Source: Pirellulales bacterium
GTDB lineage: Bacteria; Planctomycetota; Planctomycetia; Pirellulales; JAICIG01
Direction of reading: 5' to 3'
Assembly: GCA_035550375.1 (NCBI GenBank)
Contig: DASZPH010000085.1
Coordinates: 271,769 to 335,768, forward strand
DNA: 64,000 bases
The position numbers and the translations under genes were made by a program. Below, in pieces: positions 41,687 through 47,679 of the stretch. Under the pieces are notes generated by a model, which saw only the letters and a program-made list of their open reading frames with translations, did not search any database and was not told where the DNA came from. How positions within the stretch are numbered: position 1 is the stretch's first letter; the number at the start of each line of letters is the position of its first letter.

Positions 41687-42257
41687 AACGCGTGCGAAGG
41701 AGGATCGGGCAACCTGTTATTCTAGCGTTGCGGTCCAGCCGATCGCTATGGAATGAAGCTGCTGGTAGTGGGACATCAGCGTGGTGCTGGGCTGGGCTCG
41801 TGCCCAGCGATCACGAGACACCCTCTCCCTCCAGCGTGTCGGCCACTTCGCGGATGACGGCGATCGCCTCCACGCGGGACCGCTCCCATTCCCTTTCCCC
41901 AAGGCCACCACCAGAGGCAAGGTTGTGTTCGAGCGTAAACCCGCGCAGTACGAGAAGCTCCCGGCGCGTTTATTCGTCTTTGGTCTCGTCAAGTATCCTG
42001 GCGGCTAGCCGTAGAAAATGGACCCGCGATGGCCATGCGATTCACCTATTCTCGATACGGGTTCTCGTCCATGGCGCCTATTCTACCGCGCTGGATCTGG
42101 CCTGCGCGACTGCCCTTGTTTGGGCAAGGGAGAACCTGTACTTTCCTCCCACGGTCCAGCCACTCCCTGGATCCAGCCGCTTAGGCTGGATCGGCACTCC
42201 TGGTTGGGTTAGCATTGCGGGTGGTTAACACGCCCCCGCAAAGAGCCATGCACCAGG

Positions 42258-42635
42258 ATGGCAGACGCTGACTGGCAGAAGGTCTGGGTTCGCTATGCCA
42301 AGCATCGCAAGGCCACGGTCCGGGACGTAAAAAACGGCGTGGCCAAACAGTGGTCGCAATCGGAAAACTCCCAAGCCCAATACCATCCAGAGAATTATGG
42401 CGGCGACGAGCAAGTCAAGGCCCTCGACATGCTCTGCCTTGAAAACGGCGTTTTAATTCGTGCAACGGCCGTAAAGAGGACCTATTATTACGATTGCGGA
42501 GCCGGAAACTACGTCGGCTATTGCTGTGGCACCTTGACGACGTTCGTCCACACCGAATGGCACAGGGCTGGCGAGATTCACGGCAGGCCGATCTGCAAGA
42601 AGTGTCTAAACCAAAAGCCGGGCGTCGACCTATGA
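42258..42635 (+). CDS. hypothetical Cys-rich protein (island cargo)
   Basis: Track ORF in the lower-GC region. 'YYYDCGAGNYVGYCCG...PICKKC'. ATGA-coupled to the next ORF. Confidence 0.4.
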   Translation: MADADWQKVWVRYAKHRKATVRDVKNGVAKQWSQSENSQAQYHPENYGGDEQVKALDMLCLENGVLIRATAVKRTYYYDCGAGNYVGYCCGTLTTFVHTEWHRAGEIHGRPICKKCLNQKPGVDL

Positions 42636-43030
42636 TCCTCTATCCGCAAATCCCCTCAGACTTTGGGTGCGAAGTAGTTGGGTATCTCTACGATTCCGAC
42701 GATCCGGCCGACCTTGGCCAGACAATGATGGAAATCGTGACCCCGAAGGGCGTGTGCGTTAATTGCGGGTGGCTCCCTGAAGGCGACCCCAACGGAGCCT
42801 ATCGAATCGTTGTGACTCAAGGATTCCGACGCGTGATGCGCGACTACGAAACCAGAAGCATTGAGGAGGCGGCCCGAAGACTAGAAGCCATCACCAAGTC
42901 ACTTTGCGTGGGCGTGCCTTTCTTGAGTTCAATCTCTGGCGCCGTCCGGCAGACTGTAAACTTTGCATTGCCAGCGGCGAAAAACAGCGTTGAGGTGTCG
43001 GCTGGTCGTCCCGAATTGGCCATTAGCTGA
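42632..43030 (+). CDS. hypothetical protein (island cargo)
   Basis: ATG 42632 overlaps the previous stop (ATGA), in frame with track ORF 42494..43030. Confidence 0.4.
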   Translation: MILYPQIPSDFGCEVVGYLYDSDDPADLGQTMMEIVTPKGVCVNCGWLPEGDPNGAYRIVVTQGFRRVMRDYETRSIEEAARRLEAITKSLCVGVPFLSSISGAVRQTVNFALPAAKNSVEVSAGRPELAIS

Positions 43031-43041
43031 AGCCGCGAAAG

Positions 43042-43506
43042 ATGCCGAAGCCCATCTTTATCGTCTGTGCCCAAAGCGTTATCGAGGACAAGACGACTAA
43101 TAATGTAAGCATTCTTAATGTTTTAGAGAAGATTAGTTATATCAAAAGAAAACCCAGCGACGACCAGCCAGTCACGCAGTTCAATTGCAATGTTCTCGCA
43201 GTATGGCGCCGTGAAACGAGCGACATAAACGTCGAGTTCGAGACGGAGTTTTCTTTGATTCTTCCGAGCAGCGGTGACATCCATTCTCTCGCCAGTTCCC
43301 CCTTTACATTTCCCGAAGACAAGGAGCTTTGGCGATTTAATCTGATGTTTTCGGGGATGCCCCCGATAGATGGCGATGGGACATTGATTTTCCGTCACGG
43401 GCTAAGGAAGAAGGCGGCATCCGAATGGCTTTATCAGAGCTATCCCGTGTCGGTCGAGGCACTCAAAACAGAGAACGAATCGGCACAGAAGGCCACCAGG
43501 AAATAG
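43042..43506 (+). CDS. hypothetical protein (island cargo)
   Basis: Track ORF 11 nt after the previous stop. AT-rich codon usage unlike the flanks. Confidence 0.45.
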   Translation: MPKPIFIVCAQSVIEDKTTNNVSILNVLEKISYIKRKPSDDQPVTQFNCNVLAVWRRETSDINVEFETEFSLILPSSGDIHSLASSPFTFPEDKELWRFNLMFSGMPPIDGDGTLIFRHGLRKKAASEWLYQSYPVSVEALKTENESAQKATRK

Positions 43507-43513
43507 CTCGCGT

Positions 43514-44536
43514 TTAGGAAAGAACCGCCGCGAACAGTTCATCGAACGTCCAAGGGTGATCGGTCAGACCGGCCATCATGCAAGCCGTCGACCGAAGCTT
43601 GCCGGACTTGCCCGGCTTGCGGGTCCGCCAGCAGTAGTTGTAGTGGGCGGCGAAGATAGCGAATGCCGCTTCAAGATTTCTTAGTTTTTTGCTAAATGCG
43701 TAGGTCAGCCGGTTGAGCCGCTTCAAGAACAGCCGTTGGGTGCCGTTTAACCGCTCGACGTGGCTCGTGCATATCGTCCACCGCTCGCCTTCGCTCATGC
43801 CGCGCCGTGCCCGACGGCGCGTGCCTATCATTTCACTGGGCGTGTAGATGATCTTGGCATTTCGATATTCTTTAATTATTGTTCCATATTTCACGTAAGG
43901 CCCGAAAGCCAAATCGACCGCTTCCGGATAAGCCGCGAAGGCGTCGGTCGAGACCTGGACCAGCCTCTTGAACGCGCCCTGTTGATAGGCGTGATCGTCT
44001 GAGGCGTGCGCCGTCGGCCAGACGAGTCGACTGGCCACGTCACGCATGAACCGCCGTGCATTGTCGCCCGAGCGCTTGCCGATCAAAAACGACGGCAGCA
44101 GCTTAGTATCGGTGTCGAGGCACGTCCAGATGTAGACCTCGCCAATGTCGTGGCGCTTCTCGCGCTCTTCCAGTGTGAGCCGATGCTGCTTCTTCAGCAC
44201 CGTCGTATGCTGCTCGTCAAACTGGAGATGCCCCAACGTCAGGCCCCGCATCCGCTGGTCAAGAAAACGTCGGCACGCTTCCCCGAAGTGGACAAGCAGC
44301 TTGAGAATCGTTTTCTTGTGGATGCCGGTCAGCCGAACCGCACTACGGATTGACGAGCCTTCGGCCAACAGATGAAGCACTCGCTTGGCATCTTCGACCG
44401 GCACGCGCATCACGCCAAGCGGCTTTGCCTTGGGTGCCCCAAACCGCTTACCGCACAAGAGGCACTTGTAGCGTTGATTCCCGTCTCGATCCTTGCCGTC
44501 TTTCTTCAACGACGTGTGGGCACACGCGACCATCAT
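43514..44536 (-). mobile_element. IS1-family-like transposase gene (terminal inverted repeats not identified)
   Basis: N-terminal zinc finger 'YKCLLCGKRF', HTH region, DDE-type core ('QFDEQHT', 'STDAFAAY'). C-terminal 'HVERLNGTQRLFLKRLNRLTYAFSKKLRNLEAAFAIFAAHYNYC' resembles the IS1 InsB signature. Confidence 0.7.
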
Positions 44537-44741
44537 TTGCCGTTTCCCTTGCTGGGCTACGGCCGGTCGCTAGAATTCGCTTACCACAGACGGTTCAGGC
44601 GACCAGCCTGGATTGTTTGCCCGTGGTTGCCCGCCAAGGCTTCCACGGGTTTCTTTGTCTGCCGTTATTGTAACGATAAAAACATAACGGTCAAGTGGCA
44701 GTAGACTTGACCACCGATGTTTTTATCCTTACACTTTCGAC

Positions 44742-44921
44742 ATGGCACGACCAAAGAAGGAAGCAGGCATGGCCCGTGACAAACTGATGCAAGTCAGGGT
44801 CAAGCCGCAAGAGTACGAATCGTTCAAGGAAGCCGCCGACATATCGGGGCTAGATCTATCCGCATGGGTTCGCCAGCAGCTCTTGCTGGCCGTTAGGAAG
44901 GTCGCTCGAAAGAGCGCCTGA
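44742..44921 (+). CDS. 59-aa ribbon-helix-helix (CopG/MobC-like) protein
   Basis: Not in the ORF track (too short). 'MARPKKEAGMARDKLMQVRVKPQEYESFKEAADISGLDLSAWVRQQLLLAVRKVARKSA' has the beta-strand/helix/helix pattern of RHH proteins. Stop at 44919-44921. Confidence 0.55.
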   Translation: MARPKKEAGMARDKLMQVRVKPQEYESFKEAADISGLDLSAWVRQQLLLAVRKVARKSA

Positions 44922-44922
44922 G

Positions 44923-45011
44923 CGGAGTGGCGGGGGAATCGAACCCGGCGAAAAATCGCTCCTGACGCGGTTTATAAAACCGCTGCGCGGCCAACACGCG
45001 GGCCGCCCTCC
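44923..45011 (-). tRNA. non-canonical tRNA-like gene: 9-bp acceptor / 3-bp T stem, long variable arm, anticodon UAU
   Basis: Hand fold of the minus strand: GGAGGGCGG-CC-CGCG-UGUUGGC-CGCG-CA-GCGGU-UUUAUAA-ACCGC-GUCAGGA-GCGA-UUUU-UCGC-C-GGG-UUCGAUU-CCC-CCGCC(A)CUCC-G. Has a T-loop UUCGAUU and GG in the D-loop. No encoded CCA. Confidence 0.5.
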
Positions 45012-45107
45012 GAATGGAGAGCGGTCGATTTACGGCGCTAGAGAAGATCGCTTCATGTAAGAGAGACACCGGGTAGAAACGGCCAGTTCGCGCAACGAGG
45101 GTTACAA

Positions 45108-45965
45108 ATGGGAAAGAAGGGAAAGAAGTCACGTCGGAAGAGAAAGAACAAATCCAAGCCAAGCGAAGCCGGCGGCGAAGAGGAGACAGCCCCCCAAGAT
45201 CCAGAGTCCCAACTTCCATCCACTGTCGGAGCTAAGGCCGATCAGGACACAGGCCAAGGCCAGACCGCCAGCCAACCCGCCAAGGAAAAGCGACGGTGGC
45301 AAAAACCACCTGTTAGCCAAGAGTGGCTGAAATTTGCCGAAGTTCTGTGCGCTGGCGCGATAGTGATATTCGCCGCAATAGCCCAAAAGAACGCGCAGGA
45401 CGCGGCGAAGTCCGCAGAGGCAACCGTGAGGCAGGCTAGGGCCGACTCTGAAAAAATCCAAAAACTTGTCAACGAAACGGGCGTTAAATTTCTGCGGGCA
45501 TACGTGAGCGTTCAGCCGGGTGGCGTCGAGCCGTCTAAAAAGCCAGATGAACTCAAGGCTACCATAAACATCGTGAACAATGGCATGACCAGGGCGCACA
45601 AGATCGCAATGCGATCCAATGCCCTTCTTGCGCCGCTGAACTATTCCGGAGAATTCGTGACGATGCCCCATCCCACCAGGAATTGGTTGGGACCAAGCGA
45701 CAACTTTCTCTTGATGGTCTCTGTCCCGGCAAGCGAGACCCAACGGAAAGCCTTGAAGGACGGCGAATTGGTTCTGTGGGTCTATGGCCGCATAGAGTAC
45801 AAAGACGACTACAAGGGCGATCGGTACACCGAGTTTCGCTATTACTGGGATGGACAGAACGAGACCTTTAATTTTGCCAATAATGGCAATCAGGCCGACG
45901 AATGGCCGGAGGAATCCGACGCGAATATGGAAGCTAGTCACGATCTAGTCCTCCCCGCGAAGTAG
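45108..45965 (+). CDS. hypothetical membrane protein with Lys/Arg-rich N-terminus
   Basis: 'MGKKGKKSRRKRKNKSKP', acidic linker, TM 'VLCAGAIVIFAAIA', then a ~190-aa beta-rich domain. Confidence 0.5.
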   Translation: MGKKGKKSRRKRKNKSKPSEAGGEEETAPQDPESQLPSTVGAKADQDTGQGQTASQPAKEKRRWQKPPVSQEWLKFAEVLCAGAIVIFAAIAQKNAQDAAKSAEATVRQARADSEKIQKLVNETGVKFLRAYVSVQPGGVEPSKKPDELKATINIVNNGMTRAHKIAMRSNALLAPLNYSGEFVTMPHPTRNWLGPSDNFLLMVSVPASETQRKALKDGELVLWVYGRIEYKDDYKGDRYTEFRYYWDGQNETFNFANNGNQADEWPEESDANMEASHDLVLPAK

Positions 45966-46198
45966 CAGCACCACGGCCTGAGCCCACTACCAAGCTGCTG
46001 GTGTGCTTCCATTTGGCGCGAGTGTCAGGAAAAAACCGCGTTTGGGCCAAAACCGACTGCTTAGGCAAAGAGCTCGCAGCTCAGCGCTGTATTAAGAAAT
46101 CCCCACGACTCCCACGTGCCTTCAATCTGCCATGACCGAAGGCACCGGTGTACCGATTCTGGTAAAAACGAGGAACATACAAGCGCTGTGCCGGGAGA

Positions 46199-46456
46199 TT
46201 AGGCAGGCAGGCTTTCGATCCACTTTCTTGCTCGCGCGACGACCTCGCAAATATCCGGAATTGGGTCATCGCTCTCCGATGCGAAGATGATGTCGAACTG
46301 AATCCTTTCCGCCTGGTCCTTTATGCCGTGCCCGTGGCCTTCGATCGCACTCGCGAGACCTACTAGCTGCCGCCCCACATCGAGGCAGTCGGACTTCCCA
46401 GAATCCCACTGGTCACAGACCTCGCGCATCATTTGAATGATGGTCGCGTTTGACAT
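46199..46456 (-). CDS. hypothetical small protein
   Basis: Internal Met 'MSNATIIQMMREVCDQW...' of track ORF 46199..46702. Overlaps the next ORF by 28 nt. Confidence 0.3.
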   Translation of the reverse strand: MSNATIIQMMREVCDQWDSGKSDCLDVGRQLVGLASAIEGHGHGIKDQAERIQFDIIFASESDDPIPDICEVVARARKWIESLPA

Positions 46457-46686
46457 GCCCACATCATAGCGTCGGCGGGGCGGCTGGTGGCGCGAAAGTT
46501 GATGTAAGCCTCGTTCCCAGCGGCTCCAAGTGGAATGTTCAGATCCACAAGCAGGCATCGGCGGAGCATTGCCCAACCCCAGTCGTCGCGCCGTTGCTCG
46601 ACGCTGAATCCGAGCTTCTGGTAAAAGTCGATGCTGGCCGGCATGCTCTTCCCCGGCAACATTGGTATGAGACGGCTCAAGTTCAT
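46429..46686 (-). pseudogene. possible truncated glyoxalase/bleomycin-resistance (VOC) family fragment
   Basis: 'LIPMLPGKSMPASIDFYQKLGFSVE' resembles the first beta-alpha-beta module of VOC proteins, but the ORF is only 85 aa and overlaps another frame. Confidence 0.3.
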
Positions 46687-46740
46687 CGGAACCCTTTAGC
46701 AATTTCGATGGTGAATCTCGATTACGGCTACGCCGCTTCG

Positions 46741-46932
46741 TCAGCGTTGGTCATGGTCTCGTAATCGCCGCAGCAGGGCTAACCGTTCGCGGAGAAGCTC
46801 CCGCAGACGGCATTCGTCGGCCTCGGGATTCTCGTGGCGCAAACCGTCGAGGATGATCCGGCAAGAACGGTCGAAAACGCTCGCTCCCGCCAATAGCTTG
46901 TCTTCTGGCGACATGGCGCGGGCCGCTCGCAC
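46741..46932 (-). CDS. hypothetical small helical protein
   Basis: Track ORF of 63 aa. No motif recognised. Confidence 0.3.
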   Translation of the reverse strand: MRAARAMSPEDKLLAGASVFDRSCRIILDGLRHENPEADECRLRELLRERLALLRRLRDHDQR

Positions 46933-46980
46933 CTTCGAGAGGTAGCTCTCGTCGATTAGCTCCTAAGTGGGCCTCACCTT

Positions 46981-47679
46981 CTACCAGTGGAAGTGCAGAT
47001 GCGGAATCGACTCCTGTAGCCGGCCGGCCCCCTCCTCGGTCGCCTCGCTCCCCTCAATATACAAATTCTGGAGCTGATCGAACCCCAGAAGCTGCTCCAA
47101 CCCGGCATCGGTGATCGGCGCGTTCTGCAGGATCAGCGTGGTCAGTTCAGGCAGGCGTCGCACGCTCGCCAGACCGTTGTCGCCGATCTTGCTGGCGCCG
47201 AAACGAAGCAACCGCAAATGGCTCAGGGAAGTCAGCTTCTTCAGCCCCGCTGAAGTCACATCGGCGCCGGCGAAATTGAGCGTTTCCAGCTCCCGCATGC
47301 CCAGCAGGTTTTCCAGCCCGTCGTCCGTCACGCTCGTTTCGCCCAGGACAAGCGTTCGCAACTCGGTTAATCCGGCCAGGCGATGCAAGCCGGTGTCGCT
47401 GATCCGGGCCTGCTTGAGCACGAGCCGATGCAAACCGGTCAAGCCGGTAAGTTGCTCAAGATCGGCATCCGAAACCGGCTGCGATTCCAGTTCGATCGCG
47501 TCCGACTTGCCCTCGCGCACCTGGCGAACCTGTTCGGCGAGCGAATCGTCGGATCGCGGCGATTCAATCGCCGGTGCGGCATTTCTCGCCCGCGGCGCGG
47601 GCGGCTCGCAGCCCGTCGCGGCCGCGAGCCAGACCACCAACAGGGAGAAGTGAACGAGCTGCGAACGCGGCAAAGTCAA
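46981..47679 (-). CDS. leucine-rich repeat lipoprotein
   Basis: Lipobox-like 'LAAATGC'. Tandem ~24-aa LRRs ('LTGLHRLVLKQARISDTGLHRLAGLTELRTLVLGETSVTDDGLENL...'). Confidence 0.75.
   Translation of the reverse strand: MTLPRSQLVHFSLLVVWLAAATGCEPPAPRARNAAPAIESPRSDDSLAEQVRQVREGKSDAIELESQPVSDADLEQLTGLTGLHRLVLKQARISDTGLHRLAGLTELRTLVLGETSVTDDGLENLLGMRELETLNFAGADVTSAGLKKLTSLSHLRLLRFGASKIGDNGLASVRRLPELTTLILQNAPITDAGLEQLLGFDQLQNLYIEGSEATEEGAGRLQESIPHLHFHW

Follow-up and report, generated by a model that had tools for sequence, protein, structure and literature searches.

An allo-tRNA(UAU)-class gene fixed in an IS1-family mobile element of a Pirellulales bacterium, a candidate decoder of the element's own AUA codons

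Introduction

Allo-tRNAs, transfer RNAs (tRNAs) with 8/4 or 9/3 branches of acceptor and T stems, were defined by Mukai et al. in 2017 by means of a tRNA-Sec model (PMC5389517). The most abundant group among them carries the anticodon UAU and has 'stem-destabilizing mutations'; its genes lie near transposon-related and toxin-antitoxin genes, and the contigs figured may derive from Acidobacteria (PMC5389517). Six allo-tRNA(UAU) variants converted to the anticodon CUA were inactive in an Escherichia coli CAT(Ser146TAG) assay, giving no chloramphenicol resistance, and two of them were lethal to the cells; in the authors' view, translation may make no use of most allo-tRNA(UAU) species (PMC5389517), a conclusion repeated in a 2020 review (PMC7609411). 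In this study, we describe an allo-tRNA(UAU)-class gene in a stretch of 64,000 nucleotides from a Pirellulales bacterium (contig DASZPH010000085.1 of assembly GCA_035550375.1, positions 271,769 to 335,768), which was analysed at its full length and is called the window hereafter. The gene is a fixed component of a mobile element of the IS1 family of insertion sequences (IS), and may serve as the element's own decoder of AUA.

The window tRNA belongs to the published allo-tRNA(UAU) group, as assigned by the features described for it. It shares with that group a tRNA-Sec-like match, a 12-bp branch made of a long acceptor stem and a short T stem, a long variable arm, G73 and the anticodon UAU, together with stem-destabilising irregularities (here a bulged A), transposon- and antitoxin-like neighbours, and an open reading frame (ORF) that can be called across the tRNA, as in Edaphobacter C40. 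The differences concern architecture, hosts and context: the published list places UAU under 8/4 and other anticodons under 9/3, whereas the family found here is mostly 9/3; the published hosts are Acidobacteria, Clostridia and Proteobacteria, and those found here are Pirellulales (Planctomycetota) and Solirubrobacterales; and neither the fixed module of tRNA, ribbon-helix-helix (RHH) gene and IS1 transposase nor the link to ATA codons is in the original description (PMC5389517). The (9/3) allo-tRNA-Ser (UAA) of Silvibacterium bohemicum and the engineered 9/3 allo-tRNAs, which are charged with Ser and active on E. coli ribosomes, have the same 9-bp acceptor, 3-bp T stem, long variable arm and G73 (PMC5389517, PMC7590224). 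These molecules differ from the window copy in their anticodon and in their long, tRNA-Sec-like D stem closed by a tetraloop, where the window copy has 5 bp and a loop of 5 nt.

Bacterial tRNA-Ile(UAU) decoders, such as that of Mycoplasma mobile, are class I molecules of 7/5 architecture with A73, which are charged by isoleucyl-tRNA synthetase and read AUA without lysidine. The window tRNA has their UAU anticodon and their A37 and A38 in the loop, but it is class-II-like, 9/3 and G73; in the same way it departs from canonical tRNA-Ile, as it has no supported 7/5 fold, a long variable arm and G73, and scores below threshold with RF00005. It differs from tRNA-Sec (anticodon UCA, with a bacterial 8/5 branch of 13 bp) in its anticodon, its 9/3 branch of 12 bp and a score below gathering, and from tRNA-Ser, whose long variable arm and G73 it shares, in its anticodon UAU and 9/3 architecture. 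Phages and other mobile elements carry tRNA genes to compensate codon usage. As with phage-borne tRNAs, the tRNA described here belongs to an element and matches a codon seldom used by the host but common in the genes of the element; here, however, the element is small and IS-type (~1.5-2.5 kb), and the tRNA has a non-canonical body and an amino-acid identity without an obvious match to the codon. The IS1 family has a single-ORF subgroup able to carry passenger genes (ISfinder classification). The present element resembles this family in a zinc-finger domain that scores above cutoff, an NCBIfam IS1 match below cutoff and homologues annotated as IS1, and it differs in that no terminal inverted repeats or target duplications were identified. 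To our knowledge, IS1 elements have not been described as constantly accompanied by an RHH gene and a tRNA gene. In the literature on IS-borne tRNAs or a link to AUA, nothing was found beyond the 2017 work (PMC5389517) and its review.

Results

Fold of the tRNA gene

The letters of the minus strand from window position 44923 to 45011 are GGAGGGCGGCCCGCGUGUUGGCCGCGCAGCGGUUUUAUAAACCGCGUCAGGAGCGAUUUUUCGCCGGGUUCGAUUCCCCCGCCACUCCG, and the gene and its parts are as follows.

44923..45011, minus strand: allo-tRNA(UAU)-class tRNA gene, 89 nt (ARAGORN, Rfam, RNAfold, covariance model and family covariation)
Acceptor stem: 9 bp, GGAGGGCGG with CCGCC-A-CUCC, one A bulged
D arm: 3-nt linker, 5-bp stem GCGUG/CGCGC, 5-nt loop UUGGC, then 1 nt to the anticodon stem
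Anticodon arm: 5-bp stem, loop UUUAUAA
44974..44976, minus strand: anticodon UAU (cognate codon AUA)
Variable region: ~20 nt, with the hairpin GCGA-UUUU-UCGC
T arm: 3-bp stem GGG/CCC, loop UUCGAUU
3' end: discriminator G; CCA not encoded

An earlier note, made from the letters of this DNA, had read the gene as a 9/3 cloverleaf with a long variable arm and the anticodon UAU, and this fold is borne out by the RNAfold minimum and by covariation in the family. In the minimum-energy structure (-40.6 kcal/mol, z = -2.17 against shuffles), the 9-bp acceptor with its bulged A, the anticodon hairpin, the 3-bp T stem around UUCGAUU and the variable-arm hairpin GCGA/UCGC all appear as first drawn; the place of the anticodon, the discriminator G and the lack of an encoded CCA were likewise found in the sequence as the note had given them. 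An 8/4 fold of the window copy was considered and is impossible, the GGG/CCC stem being flanked by C-C. Among the programs that the note had proposed as checks, ARAGORN calls the gene, as tRNA-Ile(tat) at 44924-45008 on the minus strand, and this is the single tRNA that it finds in the whole 64 kb. Rfam gives no match at the gathering score, and in E-value mode the top model of the tRNA clan is indeed tRNA-Sec RF01852 (E = 0.0038, span 44924-45011), but with 26.8 bits against a gathering score of 47.

Relatives and covariation

A pattern scan of 185,579 species genomes returned two relatives, a near-identical copy in a second Pirellulales metagenome-assembled genome (MAG; locus L001) and a perfect 9/3 version in a Solirubrobacterales MAG (L002), and a metagenome scan by the same approach added at least five more (L016, L039, L073, L117 and L119). 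A covariance model, R1, built from six relatives, gives family members 52-105 bits and the window copy 92.7 bits, and stays below 35 bits on the ordinary and phage tRNAs of 122 other loci. The alignment A3 holds 13 family members, the window copy and twelve relatives, with 28 pairs; it was fitted to the model, which favours it, and in it 94.9% of the pair cells are standard pairs and both sides change in 15 of the 28 pairs. None of 500 column shuffles of A3 reaches the observed values of pairing or covariation, and when the 3' partners are slid by 1-3 columns, pairing falls to 44-59%. Compensatory changes occur in all five helices, across loci whose transposases are only 32-78% identical, and in the variable-arm helix GCGA/UCGC four pairs change on both sides. 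The comparison of homologous loci for which the note had asked thus supports the 9/3 fold and disfavours a decaying fragment of a canonical tRNA.

The long acceptor is the common architecture, 9/3 being found in 12 of the 13 members and 8/4 in one (L129). Pairs 8-97 and 9-96 of the long acceptor (G-C, A-U) form in 13/13 and 12/13 sequences, and each of the two extra T-stem pairs needed for a 7/5 fold forms in only 1/13, in agreement with the note's statement that a canonical fold fails. The D arm had to be redrawn. A stem CGCG/CGCG behind a 2-nt linker, as originally proposed, meets a G-G clash in L016 and L039, while the shifted register covaries; because G17-C23 becomes C17-G23, we set the linker at 3 nt, the stem at 5 bp and the loop at 5 nt. 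The D-stem pair 16-26 is U-G in 7/13 sequences, and the G-U pairs in the family alignment show that the tRNA-sense strand is the one that folds. Allo-tRNAs have been characterized by G73 or U73 and by a tRNA-Sec-like D arm with a lengthened anticodon stem: the window copy has G73, a long D stem of 5 bp with a loop of 5 nt, and an anticodon stem of 5 bp, which is not lengthened. The tetraloop UGGU in the D arm was found only in L002 and L073; L002 scores 44 bits with RF01852, also below the gathering score.

The D-loop GG and the UUCGAUU T loop are conserved in the family, the acceptor starts with GGAGRG, in which G1-C72, G2-C71 and A3-U70 are invariant, and G73 is present in all members except one (the mini form of L130, with A). 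UAU is kept in every intact member, be it 9/3, 8/4 (L129), 7/5 (L140) or a 67-nt mini form (L130), and its retention in spite of such different tRNA bodies indicates selection on the anticodon. At the position of the allo-tRNA, L140 (914-1017, on an IMG/VR contig) has a class II tRNA(UAU) of canonical 7/5 form, with G73 and ~37 nt in its variable arm; this gene scores 60.7 bits with the Rfam tRNA model and is missed by ARAGORN. The mini form (L130, 2514-2580) retains a 9-bp acceptor, with pairs 8 and 9 inverted to C-G, and a 3-bp T stem; it has no D arm, its loop is CCUAUAA and its discriminator A, and RHH, palindrome and transposase follow as usual. BLASTN of the tRNA against plasmids gave no match.

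Some further tRNA-like genes were seen in these searches. A T-loop variant, GGG-AUCGUAA-CCC, occurs in two unrelated contigs (L134 197-284 and L143 989-1081), and in L134 it belongs to a second tRNA-like gene, which lies 2.3 kb away from the first and has the anticodon UAC instead of UAU. A separate family of ~90-nt tRNAs with the anticodon UAU (L003 4318-4409, L055 8817-8910 and ~30 more loci among L003-L122) has a long variable arm (GCGCCAGAUUAGCG) on a canonical 7/5 body with A73 and an encoded CCA. Its members sit in arrays of 22-30 tRNA genes on freshwater metagenome contigs of phage-like appearance; the L003 array is without tRNA-Ile(GAU), and it is unusual for phage tRNA arrays to hold an AUA decoder of class II shape.

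The mobile module

The tRNA gene lies among the following features.

42000..47000: low-GC island with 53-58% GC; the flanks have about 60-68%, and the DNA elsewhere about 64%
43514..44536, minus strand: IS1-family transposase, 340 aa, N-terminal zinc finger and DDE core
44660..44742: RHH-transposase intergenic control region, with a 26-nt inverted repeat (44660-44685 / 44717-44742)
44742..44921, plus strand: RHH protein, 59 aa; NikA-like above the Pfam cutoff, weak RelB, TacA and DUF6290 matches
45012..45107, minus strand: tRNA upstream region, about 95 nt, reaching to the start of gene X
45108..45965, plus strand: gene X, 285 aa, starting at 96 nt from the 5' end of the tRNA, Lys/Arg-rich N-terminus, one predicted membrane helix, no Pfam match

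The earlier note had placed the tRNA in a low-GC island beside an IS1-like transposase and an RHH gene and had suggested horizontal carriage. The island stands, at about 42-47 kb, and so do the neighbours and the carriage: the window and the second Pirellulales MAG share a block of 2.45 kb (43514-45965) comprising gene X, tRNA, RHH and transposase, with unrelated flanks on both sides, which shows that the block moved as a unit, and the module is found again in a Solirubrobacterales MAG and on many metagenome contigs. In the orientation of the tRNA, the order tRNA (forward), RHH (reverse), transposase (forward) is found in L001, L002 and L119, and in these loci and the window the transposase lies at a constant distance from the tRNA. 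L073 has no RHH gene, and its transposase, only 32% identical, has the same placement after the tRNA.

As a guard against the bias of the tRNA DNA pattern, loci were also fetched from transposase proteins, and 11 of them have the upstream region. In nine of the 11 a tRNA(UAU)-like gene lies at this same distance, of allo type in L123, L129, L131, L134, L136, L142 and L143, and as the 7/5 and mini forms in L140 and L130; L137 has a decayed tRNA region and L141 no tRNA, and both retain the RHH gene. No tRNA-like element was found in alphaproteobacterial plasmid relatives of the IS1 family (33% identical). A scan of viral contigs with the single transposase gave no match, and with the transposase alignment it gave 5 loci. 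These data support well the conclusion that the tRNA is a genuine, selectively maintained gene of the allo-tRNA(UAU) class and a fixed component of an IS1-family mobile element.

The transposase has a 100% identical counterpart among the proteins of a Pirellulales MAG; 2999 homologues reach E <= 1e-10, and many of these carry an IS1-family annotation. The enzyme matches the IS1/IS1595 zinc-finger domain NF050000 with 35.1 bits (cutoff 28) and transpos_IS1 NF033558 with 64.9 bits (E = 9e-18), below the cutoff of 100; some of its homologues match PF03400. The RHH gene and the tRNA converge, the RHH stop codon ending 1 nt away from the tRNA 3' end. Such an abutment (gap 0 or -1) is present in 7/9 loci; no intrinsic terminator was found between the two. 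Between RHH and transposase, the inverted repeat overlaps divergent sigma-70-like promoters, TTGACC-16-TACAAT at 44694-44667 on the minus strand and TTGACC-17-TACACT at 44707-44735 on the plus strand. We infer that this palindrome is the RHH operator; similar palindromes are present in L130 and L137.

Gene X has the same direction as RHH, on the opposite side of the tRNA. Its homologues begin 91-96 nt from the tRNA in L131, L129 and L039, and unrelated genes replace it elsewhere. The DNA between the tRNA and gene X is conserved in the second Pirellulales MAG and, in part, in L016, L039 and L129, with the conserved motifs GCGCGAAC, GTGTC, CATG and GCCGTTTAAT, and presumably holds the promoter and leader of the tRNA. 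A 108-codon open frame crosses the tRNA on the same strand (window 44893-45219, minus strand); its apparent conservation in L001 and L016 reflects only the conserved tRNA DNA, and frames across such tRNAs may enter annotations as proteins, as described for Edaphobacter C40 (PMC5389517).

On the other side, conservation ends at the stop codon of the transposase, and a search for conserved sequence past it found none. In distant loci DNA similarity begins exactly at the tRNA 5' end, and between the window and L131 it extends beyond gene X. The gene on the tRNA 5' side varies in the distant loci (GmrSD-like, AAA ATPase, or ImmA/IrrE with DUF4411) and is often defence-like: a GmrSD N-terminal domain (L117 1-819, minus strand, 79.5 bits, with a homologue in L119), an AAA_15/AAA_21 ATPase (L123 813-2402, minus strand) and a Peptidase_M78 (ImmA/IrrE) with DUF4411 (L136 696-2339, minus strand). 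Other mobile elements cluster at the module in L016 and L039. The place of the transposase in L016 (+355..+1752 from the anticodon loop, oriented) is taken by an ORF that, by eye from its N-terminus, is similar to reverse transcriptases of group II introns, and L039 has IS3-type orfA/orfB-like ORFs upstream and a different, long transposase-like ORF downstream. An ordinary-looking tRNA-Leu(CAA) lies on the opposite strand upstream of a 38%-identical transposase relative (L144 1033-1124, minus strand), which may hint at the origin of the family's association with class II tRNAs. The remaining ORFs of the island (window 42258-43506 and 46199-46932; 125, 178, 154, 167 and 63 aa) have no Pfam or NCBIfam match and are not common to the second Pirellulales MAG.

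AUA codons in the element

The cognate codon of the tRNA is concentrated in the element. In the window, ATA makes up 9/22 Ile codons of the three element genes against 6/439 (1.4%) in host-like frames (Fisher p = 9e-10); in gene X it accounts for 5/8 Ile codons, three of which are in the predicted membrane helix. One ATA codon of the transposase stands out by its conservation.

43772..43774, minus strand: transposase ATA codon 255, in T-I-C-T-S-H-V-E-R-L-N, six codons before the catalytic Glu

Among homologues of 63-78% identity, 12/13 have ATA at codon 255, although the GC content at third codon positions of these genes is 0.62-0.81 and the codons near 255 vary synonymously. At the other Ile codons of close homologues ATA is used in 20/163 cases, which gives a binomial tail of 1.3e-10 for codon 255, a value without correction for shared ancestry. 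Among the seven homologues compared first, 14 columns have an identical codon in 7/7, and ATA is the only disfavoured codon among them. In the wider family, represented by 150 transposases, the residue aligned to 255 in homologues of <50% identity (n=128) is I in 63, A in 36, V in 28 and F in 1, and never S or T.

Two other reasons for the conservation of ATA255 were tried and rejected: an out-of-frame ATG (ATA-TGC), since L002 has ATA-GGC, and a functionally required Ser, since distant homologues have I, A, V or F. Nor was extended pairing between the anticodon loop and the mRNA found at codon 255 when read from the sequence, where only the three codon bases pair. At codon 247 of the transposase (window 43796-43798), ATG (Met) and ATA (Ile) alternate among close homologues (I 87 and M 32 of 119 proteins); both could be read by an unmodified U34.

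Discussion

The structure, spread and context of the window tRNA define a maintained gene, and what remains to be weighed is the use that the element makes of it. The evidence points in two directions, as the tRNA body predicts Ser, whereas the codon usage of the element predicts Ile or another aliphatic residue. That the element places ATA at aliphatic positions argues against the insertion of Ser at AUA and for an AUA decoder borne by the element, and this is the reading that we favour, with about as much confidence as doubt. According to it, the tRNA would be transcribed from the conserved upstream region of about 95 nt, processed, and given its CCA as for any tRNA; it would then act as the element's own decoder of AUA, a codon nearly unused by the high-GC host and often used by the element, including the near-invariant position in the transposase catalytic core. 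The synthesis of transposase and cargo would thereby depend less on the host's scarce AUA-reading tRNA. As the tRNA and the gene of the RHH repressor are convergent and abutting, transcription of the tRNA may also, more speculatively, lower RHH and de-repress the transposase. In its furthest form, this would be a self-contained codon-tRNA control circuit, in which an IS carries its own tRNA matched to a conserved rare AUA in its transposase core, transposase synthesis is gated by that tRNA, and the convergence with RHH wires tRNA transcription to de-repression; we put this extension forward tentatively and hold it to be rather doubtful.

Several observations weigh against decoding of AUA for the element, or against parts of it. 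G73 and a long variable arm are identity features of Ser type, not of Ile type. A strict sigma-70 scan upstream of the tRNA gave no promoter. An acceptor-stem bulge or mismatch is present in nearly every GC-rich member, which could mean relaxed selection. The match between tRNA and codon is incomplete in both senses, as L142 and L143 (53% identical) carry the tRNA yet have ATT at codon 255, and L141 and L137 have ATA at codon 255 yet have lost the tRNA or hold it decayed. With respect to the element as a unit, no terminal inverted repeats or target-site duplications were identified, and its ends were not located. Finally, there is the inactivity of the six converted variants (PMC5389517); that assay swapped the anticodon and detects only Ser or Ala, and would thus miss anticodon-dependent charging with Ile.

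The same experiment, which provides the only experimental data on the group, is the first argument for the main rival, already suspected by Mukai et al.: a tRNA-like RNA that never enters the ribosome and acts as a regulator of the element, by antisense pairing or transcriptional interference with the convergent RHH transcript (and RHH-X read-through) or as the RNA partner of a toxin-antitoxin-like module. The acceptor-stem irregularities recur, the 67-nt variant of L130 lacks a D arm, and, with the RHH stop codon abutting the tRNA 3' end and no terminator between, the convergent transcripts must overlap. Such a role would leave unexplained why UAU, U33, A37, a canonical T loop and the D-loop GG are kept across 9/3, 8/4 and canonical 7/5 bodies, and why ATA is enriched and conserved in the element's genes, and we consider it possible, though not probable. 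A translating tRNA could, on the other hand, insert Ser, as the earlier note had proposed for AUA: seryl-tRNA synthetase would charge it through its class-II body and G73, Ser would be placed at AUA and perhaps AUG, as a missense suppressor or even a 'toxic tRNA', and RHH would limit the damage. The body is indeed Ser-like, with its class II shape, long variable arm, G73 and GGAGRG acceptor with invariant G1-C72, G2-C71 and A3-U70; other allo-tRNAs insert Ser at Leu codons in E. coli, where two UAU variants were lethal (PMC5389517), and the rarity of AUA in the host would limit the damage. The genes hit hardest, though, would be the element's own, in which ATA stands at hydrophobic positions: residue 255 is never S or T in the 128 distant homologues, three ATA codons fall in the gene X membrane helix, and the UAU-group variants showed no Ser or Ala suppression in the CAT assay (PMC5389517). 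As a selected function, the reading of AUA as Ser is unlikely, and here we depart from the earlier note.

Two further explanations deny that the tRNA works for the element. The tRNA might be a resident gene, outside the element, that serves as insertion target of an element made of RHH and transposase, much as islands integrate at tRNA 3' ends. The first gene of the element does begin exactly at the tRNA 3' end, the distant relative in L144 adjoins its ordinary tRNA-Leu(CAA), and the genes on the tRNA 5' side differ between loci; but in the 8 loci found by the DNA pattern alone tRNA(UAU) never occurs without RHH or transposase genes, it co-occurs with the transposase across phyla, and in the two Pirellulales MAGs gene X, tRNA, RHH and transposase move together between unrelated contexts, which makes an insertion target very improbable. 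Hardly any weight is left for a decaying pseudogene of a canonical class II tRNA, or a plain canonical 7/5 tRNA-Ile. The tRNA-Ile(tat) label given by ARAGORN, the bulged A, the Rfam score below threshold and the Edaphobacter C40 copy, which was called a pseudogene (PMC5389517), would be in line with it, and they are set against compensatory changes in all five helices, outer T-stem pairs of the 7/5 fold that form in a single sequence of 13, and an invariant T loop and anticodon loop.

The class of tRNA described here was already published; newly seen are the Pirellulales host, the fixed module, the persistence of UAU across architectures and the conservation of ATA255. The allo-tRNA(UAU) genes, the largest group with 8/4 and 9/3 branches and one without known function, are now placed in a defined unit of tRNA, RHH and IS1 transposase, and the combination of a conserved anticodon with a near-invariant cognate rare codon in the transposase provides a testable hypothesis of function for this orphan group. 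If the tRNA does not decode, its conserved anticodon still requires another explanation. If the codon-tRNA circuit were true, it would give a role to a group that has so far had none. And if the tRNA decodes AUA for its own element, the element would be the first known case of an IS that supplies its own decoder and, of relevance to genetic-code engineering, a natural case of a sense codon linked to an orthogonal-looking tRNA body.

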